Assembly (NCBI GenBank): GCA_963804645.1
Contig: CAWDRG010000005.1
Span: forward strand, 288,001 to 352,000
Direction: 5' to 3'
Source of the DNA: an uncultured Bacillota bacterium
Lineage (GTDB): Bacteria; Sysuimicrobiota; Sysuimicrobiia; Sysuimicrobiales; Segetimicrobiaceae
DNA: 64,000 nt
Part shown: piece by piece, positions 13,279 through 25,788 of the stretch
Layout of the letters: each line of letters starts with the position of its first letter
How positions within the stretch are numbered: the first letter of the stretch is position 1
Position numbers and translations under genes: made by a program
Notes under the pieces: model-generated
Databases searched by the model: none
What the model was told of the DNA's origin: nothing
Seen by the model: the letters and a program-made list of their open reading frames with translations, nothing else

Positions 13279-13441
13279 TCGCCTCCGGATCGCAACGCCC
13301 TGCCGGCGCGCCGCGCGCCCCCTAGTACTACAAAGTCACGATTCTGGCAGGATTTTGCCCGCATGTGCCGAACAGCGGTAGTCGCGTACGCATACATCGC
13401 ACCTCTTGTCGCAGCAGACGTCGTCGTAGCAGGTGTCGCCG

Positions 13442-14652
13442 ATGGCCAATGCGCCGCCTTTTGCCGATCCCGATCTGCGTCAGCGGTTGATCGAGTACCT
13501 CACGGCCGTCCTGCCGGAGTTGGGCCGCAAAGATCGCCGACCGTGGGCGCAAGCGTATGTGCGCGGCTTGCTGCTGGAAGGCGAGCGGAAATCGATCGAA
13601 CCCATGGCCAAGCGCTTGCCGGACGGCAATGTGCAAGCCATGCAGCATTTCATTGGAAAGAGCCCGTGGCCGTATGAGCCGGTCCGCCGGCGGTTGGCTG
13701 GTGTGTTGTGCGCGGAAATGGGCTCCGGGCTGTGGATCGTCGATGACACCGGGTTTCCCAAGCAGGGCAAGCATTCCGTCGGGGTGGCGCGGCAGTACTC
13801 GGGCACGTTGGGCAAGGTGGCCAACTGCCAAATCGCGGTCAGCCTGCACCATGCCACGACGCTGGCGAGTCTGCCCATCGACTGGGCGTTGTACCTGCCG
13901 GAAGCCTGGGCCGCGGATCGCGCGCGCTGCGCCCGCGCGGGCGTGCGGCGGCGTCCGTGGACTACCGCCCCAAATGGCGGTTGGCGCTCGAGATGATCGA
14001 TCACGCTCGACAGTGGGGCCTGGGGGACCAACGCGTCGTCGCCGATGCTGGCTATGGCACCATCGCCGATTTCCGTGCGGGCTTGCGGGAGCGGCAGTTG
14101 CCCTATGCCGTGGGCGTCGAATCCGGCACGGGCGTGTGGATGCGGTATCCGCGACGTCGGCGGCACCCACCCACCGTGCGCGGCCGGCCGCGTACGCGCT
14201 GGGACTACGGGGGCCAGCGGCCGCCCAGCGTCCTCGAGGTGGCGCGCGCGTTGCCAAAAGCCGCTTTTCATACTGTGACGTGGCGCGAAGGGAGCCAGGG
14301 CCAGCTCCGGTCGCGCTTCGCGCACGTCCGCGTCTGACCGTCCCACGGCTTTCATGAGGGCAAGCCGCCGGAGGCCGAACAATGGCTGCTCATCGAGTGG
14401 CCGGCCGACGCCGCCGAGCCGACCAAATACTGGTTCGTCACCGGCCCGCGGCGGCTGTCGCTGTTGCCACTGGTGCGCTGGGCGAAGGCGCGCTGGCGAA
14501 TCGAGCAAGATTATGAACAGTTGAAGGGCGAACTGGGCCTCGACCACTTCGAAGGACGCCGCTGGCTGGGCTGGCATCATCACGTGACGATGACCACAAT
14601 GGCGTACGGGTTTCTCGTGCGCGAACGGCTTCGTCCCCTCGGGAGTAAAAAA
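13442..14652 (+). pseudogene. IS701-family DDE transposase, main part (frameshift near 13950, in-frame TGA at 14335, interrupted at 14652)
   Basis: IVDDTGFPKQGKHSVGVARQYSGTLGKVANCQ, VADAGYG and RWRIEQDYEQLKGELGLDHFEGRRWLGWHHH motifs. Confidence 0.92.
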
Positions 14653-14655
14653 GGT

Positions 14656-14762
14656 TCATCCGGCATTTTCGGGAATTCCAGGAAACGCGGCCATGATCTT
14701 CAGGAAGAAGTAGCCATCGTCTCGGTAGCCGTACCCCATGCGCTTGAGGACCTTGATCTTGT
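14656..14762 (-). CDS. ISL3 transposase 3' exon
   Basis: (N)KIKVLKRMGYGYRDDGYFFLKIMAAFPG, the canonical ISL3 C-terminus; joins the 5' exon in frame. Confidence 0.9.
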
Positions 14763-16677
14763 GGTGGGTAGAGGACGGCCTCGGATCGACCCTTGCGCCG
14801 TCCTCCCCCCGCAGAACCCGGCGTGCAGGTTTCCCGCACCGGGCTCCCCAGAGCGACATTCACGCCTCGGCCTCGTCAGACCGTCGGATGTAGAGTCTTC
14901 GGGCGTGGCAGTTCAAACCACGAGCGGCTCCTGAGGTAGCTCCAGAACAACCGGTGCCATTGGCCGCGCCGACGCAACGTTCTTAGCCACTGGAGCTGGA
15001 CCTCATGACAGACCCAGTCCAACTTCCGCTCGCAGTGGTGTAGGGCGAAGTACTGGTAAAATCCCCGCAGCATCGTCGTAAGGTGAGCCTGTTGCGCCCG
15101 GCGATTCCAGTGCATATGGCTCCTGAGCCATTCATGGGTGCGATCCAGAAACGTCCTGCAGCTGTCGTGTGCCGGAATGCGCACCACGGCGAACTTGCCC
15201 CGCCGGTCCCTACCGCACACGTGCTTGAAGCCCAGAAATACGAACGTGCCTGGCTTCTCTCCATGTGCGGCGGCCCGCTTTCGGGCCTCTCGCCCAAACA
15301 GCAGTAGGCGCGTCTTCTCTGGTTTTAACTCCAGGCCGAACTTCTGCATCCGCTCCGCCAGTTCGCGGCCGAAGGCGTTCGCTTCCGCCTGATGCTCGAA
15401 ACATACCACGAAGTCGTCCACAAACCGAATCAGGTGAGCGGCCCCTTGACAGCTCCGCTTGAACCGTCGCTCGAACCAGAGGTCGAGGACGTGGTGCAAG
15501 TAGAGATTGGCGAGCACGGGGCTGATCGGATTGCCTTGCGACACGCCCTCCCTGTTTCGGACGACAACTCCGTCGTGCATCACCCCGGCCCTGAGCCACT
15601 TGCCAATGAGCCTCAGGATTACGGGATCGGCGATGCGATGGGCCACCATCTTCCGTAACCAGTCGTGATTGATGCGTGTGAAGTACCCGCAAATATCCGT
15701 CTCGAAGACGTACTGTGCTTTCCCCGCAATCAGATGGCCGCGAAGATCTCGCAATGCCTGGTGCGGGTTACGCCCGGGCCGGTATCCGTATGAGCACTCC
15801 ACGAAGTCCTGCTCGTAGATGGCGCTGAGAATCCGCGCCACTGCGCGCTGCAGTAACCGGTCTTCCACCGTGGGAATGCCGATCGGGCGCATAGCCGACG
15901 TGTCCCCAGGTTTGGGGATGTCTACCCGTCGCACCGGTGGAGCCTGATACCGCCCTGCTTTCAGTCGTTCCCAGAGATCGACGACCCGTATCTCCAGATC
16001 GCGCTCGAACTGCGCGCATGTCTCTCCATCCACTCCGCTGGCACCCCGCCGGTTCATCTGCTGCCAAGTTTCTTTCAGAAACTCTGGCGTCAGAATGTGC
16101 GCCAGCGACGTGAAGCGGCACTTCGGGTCTGCCTTGGCTTTGATCGCTATCCCGGCCAGTCCGGTGGTCACCCTGATCCTCCCTCTGAAGGTGGAGGGGA
16201 TGTTTCCCCGACCAAGGTCGTACGCTCTGCCCCGCCGCTTCCCCATGTACGCGGCTCTCCCGCGCTCCGAGTACTACCAGCGGGTCCGACTTCCACCGCG
16301 GCGTTTGCCTCTCTTCGGTCGAACCATCTCGATCGGCATACTCGATCCACTCGATCAAGACCGCGGTGGATCTCCCAGGTCCCTCGACGCGTCCGTCTCC
16401 GTCCGTGCCGTGCTCTCAGACCCCGCCGGGGTCTCCGGCATCCTCGCCCTAACGGATGCGTACTGTTGCCTTCCACGATAACAACCGTGTCGGCCCCCGG
16501 ATTAGGAAGTCACGAGGCTCAATCGCTTCCTTTGCAGTACGGCCCGGACGTCGCCCTGTCTACGCTTAGCCCATGTCGTTACCTCCATGAGCCCAAGACT
16601 CGGTTCCCGGTGGGTGGCTGGCCCTTGCCGGGGCGGGAATTGCACCCGCTGGACGCGCCAGATTTGTCCTGGCGCGC
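14763..16677 (-). mobile_element. Group II intron 1 (1915 nt) in the ISL3 transposase
   Basis: 5' end GCGCGCCAGG. Domain V GAGCCCGGTGCGGGAAACCTGCACGCCGGGTTC at 14846-14814. Domain VI hairpin with bulged A at -7 (14769). Removal restores EGIN-NKIK. Confidence 0.92.
14876..16171 (-). CDS. ltrA: Group II intron reverse transcriptase/maturase, no endonuclease domain
   Basis: GASGVDG, RPIGIPTVEDR, SYGYRPGR, VSQGNPISPVLANLYLH and RFVDDF motifs. GTG start chosen for the GGAGG RBS (open frame extends to 16246). Confidence 0.92.
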   Translation of the reverse strand: MTTGLAGIAIKAKADPKCRFTSLAHILTPEFLKETWQQMNRRGASGVDGETCAQFERDLEIRVVDLWERLKAGRYQAPPVRRVDIPKPGDTSAMRPIGIPTVEDRLLQRAVARILSAIYEQDFVECSYGYRPGRNPHQALRDLRGHLIAGKAQYVFETDICGYFTRINHDWLRKMVAHRIADPVILRLIGKWLRAGVMHDGVVVRNREGVSQGNPISPVLANLYLHHVLDLWFERRFKRSCQGAAHLIRFVDDFVVCFEHQAEANAFGRELAERMQKFGLELKPEKTRLLLFGREARKRAAAHGEKPGTFVFLGFKHVCGRDRRGKFAVVRIPAHDSCRTFLDRTHEWLRSHMHWNRRAQQAHLTTMLRGFYQYFALHHCERKLDWVCHEVQLQWLRTLRRRGQWHRLFWSYLRSRSWFELPRPKTLHPTV

Positions 16678-17809
16678 TGTTGATGCCCTCGAGGAGGCTG
16701 GTGTGTAACGGATAGCGACAGTGCGCGATGATCCCGGGGAGCCGCATCTTGAGATGGCGGGCAAACGTCTTGAGGGGTTCAATGCGACTGCGGATGGCAC
16801 GGTGGTACCAGTCGGTGAAGAAGCGGGTGGCGGCGCCAGGATAGGTATAGTCCCACATCTGCTTGAGATCATCCTTCAGCACGTAGACGGCCGCAAGCCG
16901 CCGGTTGGCTGCCAAGAGGTCCTGGAGTCGTACGCGATCCTCCGGTTTGACGTTCTCACGATTGCGCAAGAGGAGCCACCGCGCGCCTTTGATCACCTTG
17001 CGGGCTTCTTTGTCGCGCCGCACGCGATTGGCTTCGTCCACGCGCACCCGGTCAATGACTTCGCGCCCGTACTTGGCGACCACGTGGAAGAGGTCATAGA
17101 CAAGGACCGCGTGCGGACAATGGGCGCGCACTTCTTCTTCGTAGGCCGTGTTCATATCCATCACCACCGCCTGCAGACGCTTGCAGCCCTCGCCACCTAA
17201 CAGCGCGAAGAAAGGACGGACGTCGTCGCGACTCCGGCCTTCGCCGACCCAGAGCACGCGTTTGCGCCGGGGTTCGACCACCACCGTGGCGTAGCGGTGG
17301 CCCTTTCGCAGGGCGAATTCATCCATCGCAATCGTTGTCACGTTGGACAGGTCCACCGGGAGCAACTGCTCTGCCAACGCGGCCACGTCCAGGTTTTTCA
17401 CGGTGTCCCAGTCGAGGCCGTAGAACTCTGCCACGTGCTTCACCGGCAGGATGCGGCAGAGCCGGACCACGCTCTCCGCCAGGCGCTTGGTCACCCGGTC
17501 CCAGGCCGACAGCCAGGACAGGGCCTCGATTTTGGGGCCGCACGTGGGACAGGCAACGCGGTAGCGCGGCACCCATACGTGAGTCTCGGCGTCGAGCAGC
17601 GGCAGATCCCGGATGCAGCGGACCACCATCTCATGCGCCTTCGCCGTCTCTTGGCCGCACCCGGAGCACCGGAAGGTCCGCTTCTCGCGGGCCAGCGTGA
17701 TCTCCACCCGCGGTTTGCCGGCTCCCGTCGTTGGTTCGATGCGCTCCACCAGCTTCACCCGATAGCATTCCCACCCGACCAGCACATTGGTAGACTGATC
17801 ATGAGGCAA
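16678..17809 (-). CDS. ISL3 transposase 5' exon
   Basis: CSGC...CPTC zinc finger, IAMDEFALRKGHRYATVV, VVMDM, YDLFHVV and LLEGIN motifs. Confidence 0.93.
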
Positions 17810-18105
17810 GGTGCTCCCCCTTCCCTGAAGCGCCGTGTTCGCAGCACGTGCTCAAGGATAGGGGTGTGGTACCTTGCCTTCAACCTATACGGCTATCCCG
17901 GTTTTGCCTGAAGAACCGTAAAAAAACCATAATGGCAAAAGTAGCATCGGCGGCATGTGCGACCACTGATGTCGAGGATTCATCCTTAGGCATTCTGAAG
18001 ATCAACGACGGCGAAGTGACGCGTCAGGCACTCGAGCACAGCAGTGATCATTGTACGCAAATCAGTTCGAGTCGTGAACGCGATAGAGAGACGCGTCGTG
18101 GAAGA

Positions 18106-18334
18106 CTATAGGGGCTTGCTCGGGGCGGAGGTTTGCCAGAGCTGTTCCAGTCGGGTGAGGAATGCCTCAGGCGCTCTTCGGTATCGCGCTCTCTGACGTC
18201 GAGGTTCCTGACTCGCGGCCCAACGTTGCATCTCCGTCCGGTATTGGTCGGTGGGAACGTGAGCAAACCATTCGATCAGGACGTCTGGAGGCAGATCGAC
18301 TGCATATACCGCCAATGCTCCGTACCGCATAATG
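18106..18334 (-). pseudogene. C-terminal part of the unclassified IS transposase
   Basis: (Y)IMRYGALAVY...RARYRRAPEAFLTRLEQLW. Joins GRKSWDG in frame once 18335-20879 is removed. Confidence 0.8.
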
Positions 18335-18342
18335 TAGCCCTC

Positions 18343-18375
18343 GGTAATGGTAGCGTATGAAACGCTACCACTACC
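18343..18375. repeat. 33-bp hairpin, left cassette end
   Basis: GGTAATGGTAGCGT-ATGAA-ACGCTACCACTACC (14-bp arms, one mismatch). Confidence 0.9.
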
Positions 18376-19146
18376 GAGGTCTGGGTGGTGGGAGCGGCAG
18401 CGGTGGTGGCACCACGCCCGGCGGAGGCAGTCCCGGGGGTGGGAGTCCCACTCCGGGTGCGAACTCCGGTCCTGGAAGCAGCGGTGGGAACGGGGGAAAC
18501 GAGCTCCGTGGCCCCCACTTCTCCGGCCAACACTGTCATTACTATATGGCCCGTAACTCCGGCGCCCGCGCCGACGACGCCGGCGGTCCCGGCAGTGCCT
18601 GCTGCACCGACACCGGTTGCGGCGACACCGGCAGTGGGCCGACACCCGCGAGGCCTCCAGTGGCGCCGGCGGCCGCTCCTGCGCCAGCGGCTCCGCAGCG
18701 TGCTGGGTTCGGCCCCCCCGTGCTCGGAGGTAGCGGGCCGACTGTGGTACTCGGCGCCCCGCGTCAGCACGGCGCCGGAACATGCCGCTCTCAGGGCGGT
18801 TCAAGGACAGCCGACCAAGTTACCATTTGGGGGCATGTCGGAAACAAAGCGCTCCCTAAATCACGCTCGGACGCTGGATTGGAACGCTCATGGCTTCAAT
18901 GGGGGCGATTTTGTTCGGGTGGAAGGTCGAGTAGTTGGAGAGCGCCTGGCACTTTCAGTTCGCGGTGCGGCCGGAGAATCGGGATACCGCTGCTCATCTG
19001 GGGCGCCGGTACGGGTGGTGCGCCTGTCTTGCAAAAAGCGGATTCCAGCGTCGATTCTGAGGTTACGAGCCGAACGACGGCACGGTGCCGGACATCCCGG
19101 CAGCGAGACGTGCGTCACGCGGTGGGACGGCCCGCTGAGCCCGTGA
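18376..19146 (+). pseudogene. Probable 3' fragment of a Gly/Pro/Ala/Thr-rich exported protein gene, captured without its start
   Basis: Low-complexity GGGSGSGGGTTPGGG and PAPAPTTPAVPAVP linkers start right at the hairpin and switch frames. No clear RBS/start; followed by a terminator-like hairpin. Confidence 0.4.
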
Positions 19147-19154
19147 CAACGCAT

Positions 19155-19184
19155 CGGGGAGCGAGTGCGAACCCTCGCTCCCCG
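19155..19184. terminator. Hairpin between convergent ORFs (probable terminator)
   Basis: CGGGGAGCGAG...CTCGCTCCCCG, 11-bp stem. Confidence 0.6.
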
Positions 19185-19234
19185 TCAATTTGAAGAGACT
19201 TGGTCGCGTTCCTTAACGCTTTACCGGTCTCCGA

Positions 19235-19879
19235 TTAGCGCCTCACCTTGCGGCGAAGCAGACCGGCGGCGCCGACCAGTCCGAAGGCGAACATCGAGAG
19301 CGAACTCGGTTCCGGTACGGGATTAGGGGCGATCTGGCCGGCTGAGATCTGTCCCTCCAGATCAAACCATGCGGTGCCAGTGTTCGCCAAACCGCTGCTG
19401 CCTCCCACGAGAACGGTGCCGCTGTCCAGGCTCGGGCTGATGTTAGCAAAAGTGGCGCTCGCGCTCTCGTAGTCATTTGGGTCGGTAGATGTGAAGGAGC
19501 CGCCGCACTGAGCGGCCGTTGGGCTGGGAGAATAAGTGCCGATGCATGCACCGTCGCCGTCAAAGCCAAATACTCCGCTACCCACGCCGCCGGTGATCGC
19601 AACGCTCTTCAGTGTGCCACCCGACGAATTCAGAACGCCGATCAAGGTGTCTTCGATGCCGTCGAAGGGCCCCTGATCAGGCGATGCCGTGGTGACATTA
19701 AACCCCGTGGCTACGTCTGAACTGTTGACCGATGTAACCGTAAGCAGCAGTTCGCATCCATTAGTGTCATTACCGACAGGCGGGCACTCGGTAAAGGAGG
19801 CGGCATACACTGCGGGGGTGACTGCCCAGAGAAGCACCGCTACCGCAGTCAGCGCAATACCCCATCTTATCGTCCTCAT
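19235..19879 (-). CDS. PEP-CTERM sorting-domain protein
   Basis: Signal peptide, Ser/Thr/Gly-rich body with four Cys, C-terminal PVPEPSSLSMFAFGLVGAAGLLRRKVRR, AAGGAGGT RBS. Confidence 0.9.
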   Translation of the reverse strand: MRTIRWGIALTAVAVLLWAVTPAVYAASFTECPPVGNDTNGCELLLTVTSVNSSDVATGFNVTTASPDQGPFDGIEDTLIGVLNSSGGTLKSVAITGGVGSGVFGFDGDGACIGTYSPSPTAAQCGGSFTSTDPNDYESASATFANISPSLDSGTVLVGGSSGLANTGTAWFDLEGQISAGQIAPNPVPEPSSLSMFAFGLVGAAGLLRRKVRR

Positions 19880-20335
19880 GCACTTACCTCCTTGATCGCT
19901 GTGGTCGCTGTGGCATTGCTGGGTGGGCTACGGCATCCCCCCTCTCGTTCCGGGGCGACGAGGATCGCGTCTGCGGAGCGCTGACGCCCTCGGCGCGGAG
20001 TCTGACCTCGGAATGGGGCTCGCTGTCCGAACCCATCCTCCATCGAACTCGAATGTGCTTTCCCGTCCCACGGGGGAAATCTTTGTATCACTTGAATGAA
20101 ACAGGCCACAAAAACGAACGACCGCTGGTCGGTGCGGGTTACGAACGTGGCTGCCGAGGCGATTCTGATTACTTCCTTTGAAGGAGGCTTTGGAAGGAGG
20201 CTTTCTGGACCGGGGCGGCAGCAGTCCGGCGCGCACGTCATCCCGCGAGATGCACAGCTTCGCCCCGCGGCGTCGGTTCACTCGATTCGGTCCGCGCGGA
20301 TGGCCGAGCCCAGCGCCGGGCCTGGTCGAGGCTCT

Positions 20336-20844
20336 CTAAACGGGCGGTCCGAAGCGGGTGCGCGAGCGTCGCAGCGCGGCACGCAGCCCCGGGCGGGCCA
20401 ACTGAAGCGGCGCGCGACCCACCGCGTATCGTACCGTGAGCGGCGGCCGGCGGTGTTTGGTTGCGATCAGGCTTGCCACCTCGGCCCAGATCGCGCTCAG
20501 CAATCCGTTCACGGCGTGTCGGCGGGGCGCCGTGCGCCGATGCGCCAACGCGTGACGGAGCGCGCCGCGGAGCGCTTCGGTGCTCGTGGTGGGAGCGTCG
20601 GACGCGACCGCCACTCGGCGCGCCGCCCAGGCCAAGGCATCTCGCACCGTGTCCTGCCGCACGATGTGCGGGCATCGGGCGGCCGCGCCGATCATCTGGT
20701 CGGGAGCGAAAGCCTCGTCGGAGGCGTGCGCGAGCTGCGTGACGGTGAGCGCCTCGACGAGGGCACGAGCGTCCTCTCTCAGCGGACCGGTGGCAGCGGT
20801 CTGGGGGAGCTGCGTCAGGGCCTTGTCAATGATTAGCCGAACGG
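20336..20844 (-). pseudogene. Possible 3' fragment of a helical protein gene truncated by the cassette end
   Basis: Open frame with plausible helical composition begins at the right hairpin with no independent start. Confidence 0.35.
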
Positions 20845-20879
20845 GGTAGTGGTAGCGTTCCCCAAACGCTACCACTACC
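20845..20879. repeat. 35-bp perfect hairpin, right cassette end
   Basis: GGTAGTGGTAGCGTT-CCCCA-AACGCTACCACTACC (15-bp perfect arms). Confidence 0.92.
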
Positions 20880-21848
20880 TAGCCATCCCATGACTTGCGC
20901 CCCGTGGTTCGGCGGTGTGCGCTCTTGGCGTGGCGCAAGAACCGCTCCAGATCGTTGTTCGTCCGCGGGATCTCGGGGTGCAGAAAACAGGTGAACAGCG
21001 TGTCGCCGAATCCCTGGGTGTACTTTTGGAAGGATTCCGCGAACAGTTCGTGCGCTGGCTGAGTCACCGCGGCCTGTGCGACCGCGGCCATGAGCGTGCG
21101 CACTCCCATCTTCGCCTGCGCCGCAGCATCATGGGGAAGCACGCCAGGGTATTTCTCTGGATCGATGACCCGAGCGAGACCCAGTAACCACGTGTGTTGC
21201 TGCTTGAGCGTGGCGTAGTCAGCGCCGTAGATCTGGTGGCGAGTTGCGATGTGGGTCAGGGTCCGCATCATGGGTACGGGCCGGACCGCAAAGCACCGCT
21301 GCAGGGAGGCGTAGATACGCTCCAGATTCTCATAGGCGCGGATGCCCCCGGGTGCAAGTGGCGGCAGTCCGTTGGATCCCGTCGAGGGAGAGCACCAGCC
21401 CGCCGTTCTGCTCGATTTGGCGGCGCACCGCCTCGACTTGCTGGCCGGCCGTGCACCCGAGAAGTGCGAAGTACGCTTCGTAGAGGCCCTGGACGTGGCG
21501 CGCACTGATGATGACCCCGCGCTGGCCGAGCTCGGCATGGATCTCAGCCCGCGTGCAGTGGTCCACCGTCCGGAGGCGCCCCACCGTGACCAGCACGTCC
21601 ATGCCGTACGTCGAGCCCTTGAGGCTCAAGCCTTCGGCGACGGCGGAGCGGTACACGCGGCGGTCGCAAGCGGCAGTCCAGCATCGATACCCGAGGCTCC
21701 CGGCCCAGAGCACTTCGGACAGGCCGATGATATGTTTGCGCCAGACGGGGTGACTGTACACCAGAGGCGCCCCGCACACCAGACAGGTCCGGCATTCGGG
21801 GCGGAAGTAGACGCGCCGGGGAGCCGCAAACACACGCGCGCACCTCAC
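20880..21848 (-). pseudogene. Unclassified IS transposase, N-terminal and central parts, with frame break/internal deletion near 21373
   Basis: CLVC..C zinc-finger start, YGMDVLVTVGRLR..HTH, GGLVLSLDGIQ, then in another frame IPRTNNDLERFLR...RRTTGRK. GTG overlaps the upstream stop. Confidence 0.75.
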
Positions 21849-22234
21849 GGGCGCTTGCGGATCACCTCCGCAGGATCGAGTTGGGCGGCTTGCCGAAGGC
21901 GCTCCAAGAGACCTTGGAGCTCGACGTCGAGCGCGCGCAGGTGTCGAGCATGCGCCCGCCATCGCCGATACGCGCGGGCCGCTGTGCTGGCCGGACCCGC
22001 CTTGGTCGGCGCCACGGGGAACACGTGCGGCGTGCCCGCACGAAACACTGAGAGGCACCAATAGGGGCCGTGTTTCTTCCCCCGCATGCAGCGGCACCCC
22101 GGCTTCCCGCACACCCGGTAGCGCTTGAACAAAGAGCCGGTCAGAGTCGGCCCGATCGCTAACGCCTCCTCCAAGACAGCGGTTCTCAGGCGGTTCACCG
22201 CTTGCACCTTGGTGCGCAGGGCCTTGGGACCCAT
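21845..22234 (-). CDS. DUF6788-like small IS-associated protein
   Basis: GSL...YRVCGKPGCRC...HGPYW motif, GGAGG RBS, translationally coupled to the transposase. Confidence 0.8.
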   Translation of the reverse strand: MGPKALRTKVQAVNRLRTAVLEEALAIGPTLTGSLFKRYRVCGKPGCRCMRGKKHGPYWCLSVFRAGTPHVFPVAPTKAGPASTAARAYRRWRAHARHLRALDVELQGLLERLRQAAQLDPAEVIRKRP

Positions 22235-22393
22235 CCGCCACCTCCGTCTTCTCTATCTGCCACTAGTATTCCTTTTCATAATGCCAGATCTCAAACCAAA
22301 AAGAAAGGAGCATGCGAAGGAGCGCCGCCGAGCACTCCAGTCACCTGCTCCAGTGCCTGTCTATGGCCGTGATGCTACTTTTGCCATTATGGA

Positions 22394-22525
22394 AAAAAAA
22401 CGGCGCGCGTCCCCACCGTGCCGCAGGTGCGGGCCCAGCTCCAGTACGTCCTGAAAACCTGGACCGGTCGCTGCAGCGTCTGCGGTCACCTCGTGCGCCG
22501 TCCGACCAAGAATGACCCATCTTAG
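22394..22525 (+). pseudogene. IS701 transposase C-terminal tail
   Basis: KKTARVPTVPQVRAQLQYVLKTWTGRCSVCGH...stop continues LRPLGS from the 14652 junction. Confidence 0.8.
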
Positions 22526-22536
22526 ATGTGACTTTG

Positions 22537-24394
22537 GTCGAGTAGGACCAGCGATCGCTCGCTGGGACCCCTCTGCCGAACGGCTCGTACGGATCTCCCG
22601 TAAGCCGCTCTACCCCATGCCGACTCGTGAGTCATCAGGAATATATCCGAAGAGAGTGGAGCCCCAGACGGCGGTAGAAGAATGTTTCAGAGTATCGCCG
22701 CCAGTTCGCCGTGCGCCAGCGTTTGGCCATGAAGGCCCGCAGCCTCCGAAGGATCCAGCGGTCCAGCGGCCTCCCGATCCGTCGCAAGTCGCCAATCCGG
22801 AAGAATCGTCCCCAACCGCGGAGCACTGGATTTAGCAGCGCCACGATCTCGTCCGCCCGACGCGGTTGGTTACGCCGCGTAAGATGACGGACCTTGTCCC
22901 GGAGCCGCTGTATTGCTCGCGCCCGTGGCTGTAGGTGCAGTCCCTCCTCATCGCGCCAGAAGCGGAATCCAAGGAACTCAAATCCTTCCGTAATGTGAAC
23001 GACCCGCGTCTTCGCAGGATGCAGTCGCAGTCCCAACTGCCCCTCCAGAATCTGGTGGACCTGCTCCAAGGCCGCCTCGGCGTCCTCGCGCGTTCGGCAC
23101 ACGATGACACTGTCATCAGCATACCGGACCGCGCGATGTCCTGCCGCGAGCATCTGATGATCGAAGGTGTTCAGAAACGCATTACTGAGCAGCGGCGAAA
23201 CTACACCCCCTTGCGGGGTGCCCGCTACCAGGGTACGCTTCTTGCCCTCCTCCATCACCCCGGCCTGGAGAAACGCCTGCACGAGCCGGAGAATCCGCCC
23301 ATCCGCCACCACCTCGGCGACTGCGGCCAGCAGCCGCGCATGGGACGCGGTGTCGAAAAACTGTTCAATATCGATTTCGACAATCCACTCGCCCCCGTGA
23401 TGCAGGCTCGCCATCACATCGCCAATGGCCTGATGCGCTGACCGTCCTGGACGAAACCCGTAACTGGTCTCCGCAAACCGCGGCTCAAAGTGCGGTTCCA
23501 GCCGCAGACGCATCGCCTGCGCCACGACGCGATCTCGTACAGCAGGGATCGCGAGGCCGCGACGACGTCCATCGGGTTTGGGAATGTAGACGCGACGCCC
23601 GGGCTGGGGCACATAGGCATCGTCCTTGAGGGCCGCCTGGAGTCCTTGCAACTCCTCATCCAAGTGTGCCTCAAATGCCTCAAGGCTCTGACCATCCACG
23701 CCCCACGTCCCGTGGTTCGCCTTGACCAGCGTCCAGGCCCGCCGCAGATTCGGCAGGTACCAGACCTTGTCGATGAGCGAGCCGACCTTGATCGGATGCA
23801 CGTCCTCCGCCACTCCTCCTCCTTCCTGACCAGAGTCCTGTTGGTCGGGGTCTGCACCGGTCGCGGCTCGGGAGCTGCTCATGACAGAGATCCCTTACCC
23901 CGCGCTCGTCAAGCCGATCCCGCCTTCAGGCCACCAAGCATGGAGCGGGTCCCTTCGCTCTGCCAGGTTTCCCTGACCTCATCGCTACGTCTGGACCCGT
24001 CCGACTCCTGAACGTGCATCGGGTTGGCTTTTCCCCTTCCGGGTTATACCGTCCCTACCTGTCCGCGCAGGACCGAACCCTACTCGCGACAGGACACGCT
24101 CAGGCCTCCCCGGGTCATGCTGCTCTCTGTCCCACCATGCTGCCCGCACCCACGACTGATCCCCCCTGGTCTTCTCTGGATGCCCCTTCCTCCAGTACTA
24201 GCAGAGTCGGGCCTCCAGGGGTTCGCGCCGACCGGTTCGCCTGGCTTCGACAGCCTCGGCTGCGGCCTGGTGGTTTGCCTCAGGTCCTTCAGATTCCGCC
24301 TCGCGACGGACACCCTACCCTTTTCGGCTACGGTCCGCATCCAGCTGGACCGGCAGGTCTTTCACCTGCGAGAGAACAGCACTGCCGGGCACAC
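22537..24394 (-). mobile_element. Group II intron 2 (1858 nt) inserted in the IS701 right TIR
   Basis: 5' GTGTGCCCGG and 3' CCTACTCGAC. Domain V GAGCGGCTTACGGGAGATCCGTACGAGCCGTTC at 22610-22578. Bulged A at -7. Removal restores the TIR. Confidence 0.93.
22635..23813 (-). CDS. ltrA: Group II intron reverse transcriptase/maturase, no endonuclease domain
   Basis: SLIDKV, GVDG, LAIPAVRDR, SYGFRPGRS, GTPQGGVVSPLLSN, RYADD and LNPVLRGW motifs. GTG start after GGAGGAGG (open frame extends to 23882). Confidence 0.93.
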   Translation of the reverse strand: MAEDVHPIKVGSLIDKVWYLPNLRRAWTLVKANHGTWGVDGQSLEAFEAHLDEELQGLQAALKDDAYVPQPGRRVYIPKPDGRRRGLAIPAVRDRVVAQAMRLRLEPHFEPRFAETSYGFRPGRSAHQAIGDVMASLHHGGEWIVEIDIEQFFDTASHARLLAAVAEVVADGRILRLVQAFLQAGVMEEGKKRTLVAGTPQGGVVSPLLSNAFLNTFDHQMLAAGHRAVRYADDSVIVCRTREDAEAALEQVHQILEGQLGLRLHPAKTRVVHITEGFEFLGFRFWRDEEGLHLQPRARAIQRLRDKVRHLTRRNQPRRADEIVALLNPVLRGWGRFFRIGDLRRIGRPLDRWILRRLRAFMAKRWRTANWRRYSETFFYRRLGLHSLRIYS

Positions 24395-24399
24395 TAGTA

Positions 24400-25788
24400 C
24401 TAGGGTTTGGCGGGCGCGGACGGCGTGACGGTCGACGGCGCGTGGCTCGGCGTGATCGTCGAGCCGGGGCGTGTGGCCGGCGCCGCGCTGCCGGCGGGCG
24501 GCTGCAGGCCGAGAAAATCCTTAATCGGCTGCGGGAAGCTATCCAGCACCCCGGCCGCGAGCGTGTACTGGAGTCCGAGCGCGCGGTTCACCGCGACCCA
24601 CCCGTTGTACTGTTTGTAAAACTGCACCGTGAATCTCGCGTCGGCGCCGCCGTCGGTCTGCACCTCGAACGCCGGGGCGGCCGCGAACGAGGACGTCAGC
24701 GCCTGCACGCGGTCCGCGTCCATCAGGTTCACCGACGAAAACATGTCGGAGACGTTCTGATCGCTCAGGTCGCTCCCGGTAAACCCCGGGCCCTGACGGC
24801 GGACCTCGAGGGTCTTCCCGTTCCGGCGCCACGTGAACACGGTCAAGTCTTGAGGATTGTACGGCAGCACGTGGGTGCTGACGAGCGAGATCGGCGCGGG
24901 GGTCATCCGCCCGTCGAGGTCCGCGTCGAGCTCCATCACCGTGCGGCCGCCGGCGACCATCGCGTACGTCACCTTCGGCCCCTTCGCGAACAGCATCCGC
25001 AGGGGCTCCGGACGCCCCTTCATCGTGAGATCGAGCGTGACGTCCGGATGATCCAGCCCGTAGGGGGCCAGGTCGGTCACGCCGTCATGGAACACCTTGC
25101 CGTCGGAGGTGGTGAGCGGGAAGAACAGATCCGTGACCTTGAAATCGTCGGCCGGCCACGGCCGGCTCCCCTCGATGCGCCAGCGGTCGGGGCCGGTGCG
25201 GTCCACGACCAGCGATTCCGTCGGCGACGTGATGCGCACCTGCTGGACGTCGGCGTTCGCGAAGTCCGCGAGGGTCTTCTGGCGGAGGTCCGCGGCGGTC
25301 TTCGTCAGCCCATCCTTCGCGGTGCTGTCGACGACGTACAGCGAGGTGCCGGGGTCGAGCTTGGCGTAGAGCGCGTTGCCGACCGGCGACGGCTTCCCGA
25401 GCTCCACGGTCACCGATCGCCCGCCGGAAGTGCGCAGCGTCACGCGCACGGTCGGCCGGTCGAGGCCGTACGCCGCGAGATCGGTCGCGCCGCTGAGCGT
25501 CCGCTGGGGCACGATCCCGGTGACCGCGTCGAGGAAGTCCGAGACCGACAAGGAGGCCGCTGGGGTCTGAATCGGACGCGTGATCTGCCAGTGCGTGGGG
25601 TCGGTGCGTGACAGTTCGACCGTCTGGTTTGCGGTCGTGATCGTGATTCCGGTGATGTCGGCCTTCTTGAGCTGCACCAGATGGCTCGCCAGTTCCGCCC
25701 GCTGCGCCTGCGGCCGGTCCACCGCGAAGATGTACGCGGCGATCACCACCACGAGGCCGGCGAGGATGAGCGTCGCGCGGGGGGTCAC
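24400..25788 (-). CDS. DUF4340-type membrane-anchored protein
   Basis: N-terminal TM and repeated LAAYGLDRP/LAPYGLDHP motifs; last gene of a Gld-type operon. Confidence 0.82.
   Translation of the reverse strand: MTPRATLILAGLVVVIAAYIFAVDRPQAQRAELASHLVQLKKADITGITITTANQTVELSRTDPTHWQITRPIQTPAASLSVSDFLDAVTGIVPQRTLSGATDLAAYGLDRPTVRVTLRTSGGRSVTVELGKPSPVGNALYAKLDPGTSLYVVDSTAKDGLTKTAADLRQKTLADFANADVQQVRITSPTESLVVDRTGPDRWRIEGSRPWPADDFKVTDLFFPLTTSDGKVFHDGVTDLAPYGLDHPDVTLDLTMKGRPEPLRMLFAKGPKVTYAMVAGGRTVMELDADLDGRMTPAPISLVSTHVLPYNPQDLTVFTWRRNGKTLEVRRQGPGFTGSDLSDQNVSDMFSSVNLMDADRVQALTSSFAAAPAFEVQTDGGADARFTVQFYKQYNGWVAVNRALGLQYTLAAGVLDSFPQPIKDFLGLQPPAGSAAPATRPGSTITPSHAPSTVTPSAPAKP

Follow-up and report, generated by a model that had tools for sequence, protein, structure and literature searches.

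The stretch of DNA described here (the window, 64,000 nucleotides, positions 288,001 to 352,000 of contig CAWDRG010000005.1 in the metagenome-assembled genome GCA_963804645.1 of an uncultured Bacillota bacterium) carries a nest of mobile DNA at positions 13322-24403, all positions being counted within the window. In this nest one insertion sequence (IS) of the IS701 family holds five inserts, so that six mobile elements are arranged in three levels, and 11,078 bp lie between the two CTAG copies at its ends. The architecture can be written as IS701[ISL3[intron 1] + ISx[hairpin-ended cargo element] + intron 2], where the introns are group II introns and ISx is the working name for an ISNCY-type insertion sequence with a DUF6788 gene and a DDE transposase gene. 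This arrangement had been proposed in a sequence-only reading of the window and was correct, that is, the identities of the elements, the duplications and the restored reading frames were all found, each junction lying at the coordinates in Table 1. The 11,078 bp are best explained, with a probability of roughly 90%, by successive and independent insertions into one IS701-family element that lay in an intergenic spacer of about 47 bp.

The source genome (G000), that of a bacterium of soil or peat, consists of 5.3 Mb in 22 contigs (C1-C22, the window being in C5) with a guanine + cytosine (GC) content of 68.6%. The left neighbour of the nest is an NAGPA-family gene and the right neighbour a DUF4340 gene; they are on the same strand as each other, the nest splits the pair, and the TAG stop codon of the DUF4340 gene, which is the upstream one, is part of the right CTAG copy (24400-24403). 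In related strains the spacer between the two genes is roughly 47 bp, and read-through transcription between them is probably cut by the nest. The GC content between 13.3 and 24.4 kb is 0.60-0.67 against 0.70-0.75 outside, and third-position GC is 0.64-0.82 for the open reading frames (ORFs) of the nest stretch against 0.92 for the flanking genes; this lower third-position GC suggests a foreign origin of the inserts and was counted as support for the insertions. As had been foreseen, an ORF-based annotation would give scattered fragments of transposases and reverse transcriptases (RTs) and miss that 11 kb lie within one IS, and a gene-based pipeline would overlook 11 kb in a spacer that measures about 47 bp in related strains.

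Table 1. Components of the nest, from left to right; positions are those of the window.
Feature	Positions	Strand	Remarks
Left IS701 target duplication CTAG	13322..13325		Single CTAG in empty-allele contigs; CTAC in G004
IS701 left part	13326..14652	+	Inverted repeat 13326-13339 and transposase pseudogene; ends in A-run
ISL3-family element	14653..17917	-	Own DNA 14653-14762 and 16678-17917; duplications 14645-52 / 17918-25
Group II intron 1, 1915 nt	14763..16677	-	RT/maturase ORF 14876-16246; within 3' end of ISL3 transposase gene
ISx	17927..22392	-	Perfect 22-bp terminal inverted repeats 17927-48 / 22371-92
ISx DDE transposase, three pieces	about 21373-21850, 20885-21372, 18109-18334	-	Deletion junction 21372/21373
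ISx DUF6788 ORF	about 21848-22234	-	DUF6788 65.2 bits
Cargo element, 2540 bp	18340..20879		TAGCC at 18335-39 and 20880-84; palindromes 18340-18378 / 20845-20879
Cargo PEP-CTERM protein gene	19235-19879	-	PEP-CTERM domain match
IS701 right part	22393..22536	+	A-run to inner 9 bp of right inverted repeat
Group II intron 2, 1858 nt	22537..24394	-	RT/maturase ORF 22635-23882; EBS1 (exon-binding site 1) candidate 24194-24200
IS701 right tip and right CTAG	24395..24403		Last 5 bp of inverted repeat 24395-99, then CTAG 24400-03

The IS701 element extends from 13326 to 24399 with CTAG on both sides, and about 1470 bp of it remain when the inserts are stripped; the sizes claimed earlier for the stripped elements (about 1.47 kb for IS701 and 1350 bp for ISL3) are both right. 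When intron 2 is removed in silico, the 14-bp inverted repeat at the ends of IS701 is perfect. Against NF033540 two pieces of its transposase score 206.7 bits (profile positions 2-156) and 82.5 bits (positions 311-363), and the middle part is out of frame because of a +2 insertion, GG at 13947-13948. For comparison, contigs of four metagenome runs (X1, X2, X3 and X7) and two single metagenome contigs (L012 and L016) were compared with the window, and the +2 insertion is present in none of C2, C11, L016, the X1 contigs and the X3 contigs, while a TGA codon at 14335-14337, formerly TGG, is also present in L016. As judged from the nonsense codon and the +2 frameshift, this IS701 copy is dead. Relatives on C2 and C11/C22 are about 80% identical and alike in their ends and CTAG duplication, the one on C11 being intact with 442 codons and near-identical ends, and CTAG also flanks the copy on C17, so that other copies in the genome agree with the ends and the duplication assigned here. 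The C2 and C11 relatives run unbroken through the run of seven A's, and therefore 13326-14652 and 22393-22536 were formerly contiguous. IS701-family elements are 1400-1550 bp in length and produce a target duplication of exactly 4 bp according to De Palmenaer et al. (2008, PMC2266710); the window element resembles them in its stripped length, its 4-bp duplication and its NF033540 match, and differs in that it is dead, has a right inverted repeat split by an intron and carries 9.6 kb of passengers. Smaller remains of IS701 were also seen. A solo right-end fragment of 143 bp (C17:733878-734020) is intron-less, its inner 9 bp being joined to the terminal 5 bp, and starts exactly at the A-run that ISL3 and ISx hit, with unrelated DNA upstream, which makes a second break at that place. 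In a small remnant at C5:32171-32350, position 13838 of the window element is joined to 22487 with two extra letters, and the same joint is found in one contig of run X1.

The ISL3-family element has 1350 bp when stripped, imperfect terminal inverted repeats and an 8-bp duplication (GTAAAAAA, at 14645-14652 and 17918-17925), and its transposase matches Pfam DDE_Tnp_ISL3 (1.3e-57) together with helix-turn-helix and zinc-ribbon domains and NF033550 (295.7 bits). An intact element of 1350 bp, 99.6-100% identical and flanked by the duplication GATAATAA, lies at C9:1381380-1382729, and alignment with it fixes the edges of intron 1 (14763-16677) without ambiguity. The three transposase domains, the length, the imperfect inverted repeats and the AT-rich 8-bp duplication are those of the ISL3 family, whereas the group II intron on the sense strand near the 3' end of the transposase gene sets the window copy apart. 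Intron 1 gives 163.4 bits with RF02005 and 48.6 bits with RF00029, both above the cut-off, and its RT/maturase 331 bits with TIGR04416; it is present as a single copy in the source genome. It lies on the strand of the ISL3 transposase, 34 codons ahead of the stop codon, and because of this sense orientation splicing could restore the ISL3 reading frame. Intron 1 begins (16618-16677) with a strong 5' hairpin, and the RF02005-type introns at C10:190146-190409 and C15:191044-191307 likewise have such a hairpin and no evident GUGYG where their flanks diverge.

ISx lies within the A-run that also took up ISL3, offset by one base to the right from the ISL3 duplication, and its minus strand encodes the DUF6788 protein and the DDE transposase. 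In the metagenome contig L016 the transposase core has 380 nt more past 21372 than in the window, and residues 148-280 of the related transposase P0006 (the P handles denote protein relatives of the ISx transposase), about 133 codons that include the region of the second catalytic aspartate, are without a counterpart in the window. From these comparisons the window ISx is an internally deleted copy that has lost about 0.4 kb of its catalytic core at 21372/21373. The 2540-bp cargo element interrupts the remaining transposase between ..GRKSWDG and YIMRYG.., and its removal makes the transposase continuous, with the same residue count as in P0006, P0007 and P0009.

Intron 2 is 5 bp away from the right tip of IS701, antisense to the IS701 transposase, and shares its strand with the flanking host genes. 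Its protein matches TIGR04416 with 391.5 bits and contains RVT_1 and GIIM domains, its 5' end reads GUGUG, and its 3' end folds as a hairpin like domain 5 (with a 2-nt bulge) and a domain 6 with an unpaired A at -7. Copies that are 99.9% identical occupy the same position in the IS701 elements of C2 and C11/C22, although these host elements are only about 80% identical, and the congeneric genome G002 has a shortened copy with the same 5' exon. All four 5' junctions (three in the source genome and one in G002) read CTAG + TA(C/T)TA, and the DNA beyond is unrelated.

Natural alleles in which the inserts are missing are the next line of evidence, and empty or intermediate forms were found for five of the six elements. 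The whole nest is absent from the congeneric genome G004, which joins both flanking genes across CTAC with flanks that are 88% identical, and from peat-metagenome contigs of three of the four runs (X1, X2 and X3, from two studies), which join 13320 to 24400 with a single CTAG; these contigs show a few differences in the left flank and so come from other strains. The single CTAG that the sequence-only reading had proposed to look for was therefore found in contigs, with CTAC in its place in G004. The intermediate alleles that it had suggested exist as well: IS701 with ISx and without ISL3 is present in L016 and in contigs of three of the four runs (X2, X3 and X7), the joint leading from 14644 to 17918, and L016 joins 14652 directly to 17918, one 8-mer being shared. 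ISL3 without intron 1 is represented by the copies on C9 and C15 and by a joint from 14762 to 16678 in two of the four runs, IS701 without ISx by the relatives on C2 and C11 that run straight through the seven A's, and IS701 without intron 2 by the C17 fragment and by a joint from 22536 to 24395, again in two of the four runs. The nest is largely reconstructable, with insert-free counterparts in other copies of the genome, in a congeneric genome and in metagenome contigs, and part of the order of events is documented by natural alleles rather than guessed.

As to the order, IS701 was inserted at CTAG with the usual 4-bp duplication of its family. ISx entered the A-run, towards the 3' end of the transposase gene of IS701, and either carried the cargo element in its own transposase gene already or received it later. 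After this ISL3 was inserted into that run of A's, 9 bp farther left and with its 8-bp duplication, and ISx then lost about 0.4 kb of its catalytic core; intron 1 is in the ISL3 transposase gene and intron 2 five bp inside the right tip of IS701. L016 has ISx with the cargo, no ISL3, an undeleted core and no +2 frameshift, and it shares the TGA codon; this combination demonstrates, as far as alleles can be read as stages, that the TGA preceded the presence of ISx with its cargo in IS701, and that ISL3, the ISx deletion and the +2 frameshift are later still. The duplications in the A-run, with 15 A's in total across the two copies, fit either order of ISL3 and ISx. The nest constrains the order of events in part, namely for IS701 and then ISx with its cargo, which precede ISL3, the deletion and the frameshift, but does not place the two introns in it.

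The earlier suggestion that a dead IS served as a safe landing site is reasonable, and none of the inserts would have been harmful because IS701 was already dead, but target preference explains at least three of the five inserts as well or better. This preference follows from an AT-rich run in a genome of 69% GC and from the intron homing site at the IS701 tip. Octamers with at least seven A/T make up 0.18% of the genome positions, and both full ISL3 copies sit in such octamers; the scarcity of AT-rich octamers in this genome presumably explains why ISL3 and ISx both went into the A-run.

Several points weigh against successive insertion at this locus or against parts of it. The metagenome contigs may be from other loci or organisms, so the intermediates need not be ancestors of this nest, and in run X1 a loose end at 13321 has this type of IS701 beside different flanking DNA. 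The empty allele skips 11,079 bp and not 11,078, since its C-run ahead of CTAG is shorter by one C. No DNA copy of a cargo-less ISx was found, its empty site being known from proteins only, and the GG frameshift could be an assembly error, which the TGA could not. Among the contigs listed, those that bridge junctions cover IS701/ISx, both hairpin junctions, the right ISx/IS701 junction, both junctions of intron 2 and the right host flank, but ISL3/IS701, the junctions of intron 1 and the ISx deletion junction are not bridged by these and are based on this metagenome-assembled genome and on the duplications of the elements. As for the introns, the ends of intron 1 (GCGCG at the 5' side and ..CCACC at the 3' side) are not the canonical GUGYG and AY, no pairing of at least 6 nt between a candidate EBS1 and the end of the 5' exon was found, so that splicing of this intron is only a possibility, and intron 2 reaches 28.8 bits with RF02003 (domains 1-4), below the cut-off of 49, and gives no RF00029 match at E<=1.

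A part of this evidence could be read in another way, namely that IS701[ISx[cargo]], if not the whole nest, was assembled at another place and moved to this CTAG as one long composite by an intact IS701 transposase acting in trans on the outer inverted repeats, which is rather unlikely. The IS701 transposase was already dead in L016 by the shared TGA, the intact 442-codon relative on C11 with its near-identical ends could have acted, and the X1 loose end at 13321 places this IS701 type next to a different flank; in addition, no other copy of ISx, of the cargo or of its hairpins is present in the genome or in 93 other genomes of the phylum, so that a helper is missing here. However, L016 ends inside IS701 and its flank is not visible, intron 2 splits the right inverted repeat and so must be younger than such a move, and the C11 relative is just about 80% identical. 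That the nest is an artefact in which repeats of a metagenome were wrongly stitched together is highly improbable, because every insert is bounded by an exact duplication or a restored frame, which mis-joins do not produce, and independent contigs reproduce the junctions IS701/ISx, hairpins, ISx/IS701 right, intron 2 and right flank, even though the genome is metagenome-assembled, holds several near-identical copies of ISL3 and of intron 2, and has in contig C11 a break that falls within intron 2. Successive insertion into the IS701 copy is consequently retained; as such the nest is a well-documented specimen of a known phenomenon, and the hairpin-ended cargo element alone remains without explanation.

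The position of intron 2 can be accounted for by its target. Nucleotides 195-201 of the intron, the candidate EBS1, are complementary at 7/7 positions to the final 7 nt of the 5' exon (intron-binding site 1, IBS1), with one G-U pair in the C2/C11 copies; for EBS2 no site at a convincing position was found. It is inferred that intron 2 retrohomes through this 7-nt EBS1-IBS1 pairing to a target composed of the IS701 tip and the CTAG duplication. Because of this composition the site exists only where an IS701 has been inserted, and the intron would track, and probably disable, every new IS701 copy at the joint of tip and CTAG. Neither intron protein has an endonuclease domain, so both introns are probably primed by nascent strands at replication forks in the manner of RmInt1. 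In Sinorhizobium meliloti the host of RmInt1 is ISRm2011-2, and RmInt2 resides within the inverted repeats of ISRm17; both lack an endonuclease domain and have an insertion sequence as their natural homing site, and their insertion blocks the spread of the IS (PMC5894124). Intron 2 is like them an endonuclease-less intron that homes to an insertion sequence, the RmInt2 site also being in terminal inverted repeats (PMC5894124), but its host belongs to the IS701 family and its IBS1 is made of the last 5 bp of the IS and part of CTAG. A further difference is that intron 2 is at the right end alone, in all three copies of the source genome, while the left end of IS701 (13326-13343, plus strand) offers the same 18-nt target as the right end (24382-24399 and 22528-22536, minus strand).

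The ISx transposase belongs to a large family, the relatives of which, clustered at 50% identity, number 1196 at E<=0.001, 506 at E<=1e-10 and 53 at E<=1e-30 and are about 520 aa in full length. This family is without a curated model: the window ISx scores best with IS66 (17.8 bits, cut-off 180), its full-length relatives reach at most 47.7 bits with IS256 (cut-off 150), and for IS256, IS66, ISL3 and ISH6 alike ISx stays under all curated cut-offs of NCBIfam and Pfam. Relatives on plasmids are annotated as "ISNCY family transposase" or "transposase". The earlier label of an unclassified IS is thus fair in view of all curated cut-offs tested, but what lies in the window is a deletion derivative of ISx and not a whole element. 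The relatives, which are ISNCY-type transposases with a kinship to the Mutator/IS256, IS66 and ISL3 groups, have a length of about 520 aa, an N-terminal zinc ribbon and the DDE motifs ..DG.QP.., ..SD.Q.. and ..TNNDLE.., and the small DUF6788 ORF as a partner is retained in the window ISx with 65 bits; the window ISx differs by the missing region of the second catalytic D and by the cargo element that splits it. No further copy of ISx was found in the source genome, and at E<=1e-20 no member of the family was found among the phylum's 93 other genomes. A search for related loci with P0006 found none, plasmids gave no DNA match to ISx, and a literature search for DUF6788 found no paper.

The cargo element contains the PEP-CTERM gene, preceded on its strand by two orphan ORFs, and about 0.85 kb of glycine-rich sequence the coding of which is uncertain. 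Both of its ends are near-identical palindromes made from one 14-mer, the outermost 14-mers (18343-18356 and 20866-20879) matching at 13/14 positions; the folding energies of the palindromes are -18.8 and -17.8 kcal/mol (z-scores -6.9 and -6.6). With the alternative limits 18343-20879 the flanking 8-mers TAGCCCTC and TAGCCATC match at 7/8 positions, and the duplication is thus 5 or 8 bp. A third TAGCC at 20834-20838 is 6 nt upstream of the right hairpin, which is in this way bracketed by TAGCC. The four 14-mers of the two palindromes are unique in the 5.3-Mb genome at up to one mismatch, and at up to two mismatches the source genome has scattered single matches only. Among 33 stop-to-stop frames of at least 45 aa in the cargo no match to a transposase or recombinase was obtained, and neither a Y1/HUH transposase nor TnpB was found in them. 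The 179-aa ORF has near-identical matches only, and a search of 93 other genomes from the phylum (E<=1e-8) did not find the PEP-CTERM protein. Compared with L016, L012 and contigs of three runs, the window cargo is 1 nt short after 19936 and 13 nt short after 20179.

Searches with the hairpins led to few places. A strict pattern found nothing among 185,579 GTDB species genomes, and a looser one found 11 loci in metagenome contigs, of which L012 and L016 are the same element, while the remaining nine have a lone palindrome each and diverge beyond its core; two of the nine (L015 and L017) were examined and both adjoin ordinary genes. Six matches in viral contigs are unrelated to the cargo element. 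A parent element with such ends was found neither in the source genome, the GTDB genomes, the viral contigs and plasmids nor, apart from copies of the same element, in the metagenomes. In a comparison of L012 with window positions 19374-21305, the cargo differs at 4 private positions in about 1.5 kb (about 99.7% identical), and the ISx flank is identical for 131 bp and then has 27 differences in 262 bp (13 synonymous and 10 non-synonymous codons). This flank divergence of 10% means that the cargo sits in a mosaic or a different ISx variant, which suggests that the cargo spread between ISx variants by a homing-like conversion or by repeated site-specific insertion.

How the cargo element moves may be considered from these ends. 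The mover would most likely be an enzyme acting in trans, not encoded in the source genome, on the terminal 14-bp inverted repeats, each of which is half of a palindrome. A tentative explanation, with somewhat less than even odds, is that the cargo is a non-autonomous DDE transposon, that is, a mobile insertion cassette mobilised in trans, with 14-bp repeats and an 8-bp duplication, the ends of which are tiny "two-end" remnants of a parent IS as in a composite transposon. It agrees with the inverted 14-mers at 18343-18356 and 20866-20879 that are flush with an 8-mer matching at 7/8 positions, with the four copies of the 14-mer in the two palindromes and with the lack of a transposase gene inside the cargo. 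In addition, relatives of IS66, ISL3 and IS256, as they occur in this nest, typically make duplications of 8 bp. However, the duplication is imperfect, and no parent element with such ends was present in any collection searched. Mobile insertion cassettes are passenger genes without a transposase between the ends of an insertion sequence, a term used in PMC2266710. The cargo is similar to them in having a PEP-CTERM passenger between short inverted ends, no transposase and a flanking direct repeat, and is dissimilar in that each end is a complete palindrome, the duplication is 5 or 8 bp and the parent IS was not found.

It is unlikely that the cargo moves instead as single-stranded DNA by means of its hairpins in the manner of IS200/IS605 or REP/RAYT, inserting 3' of TAGCC and having TAGCC as its own 3' end. 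The exact TAGCC pentamer is found on the left flank as well as at the right end, and the hairpins lie between the two, one on the 3' side of the left pentamer and the other on the 5' side of the right pentamer, with the third TAGCC (20834-20838) in addition. Both hairpins have the same polarity with GTAG motifs, and a transposase acting on inverted repeats was not found in the cargo. These features are offset by the absence of a Y1/HUH or TnpB gene from the cargo, by the perfection of the palindromes, from which a polarity cannot be read, and by the presence of only two hairpins in the genome, where IS200/IS605 or REP/RAYT would be marked by such a gene or by many genomic copies of the hairpin. 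The hairpins of IS608 stand farther from their cleavage sites than those of the cargo do from the putative ones, and similar lone hairpins in L015 and L017 just follow ordinary genes. Site-specific recombination on a TAGCC core is a little less likely still. It is quite improbable that the cargo represents an undescribed kind of carrier without a transposase that moves by its terminal palindromes and settles specifically in transposase genes of the ISx type, although the comparison with L012 hints at this. A decayed mini-element of a large serine recombinase was also considered and dropped, as there is no remnant of a recombinase and the insertion is 21 codons after the catalytic E. The non-autonomous DDE cassette has the best odds of these, and the hairpin-ended element is of interest as a lead toward its mover.

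Other relatives of these elements are scattered over the genome. Small DUF6788-like ORFs with the motif CGKP.C.C...HGPYW are found at 15 or more other places (on C1, C6, C9, C10, C11, C13, C15, C17 and C19), and about ten further reverse transcriptases of group II introns are present in the source genome.

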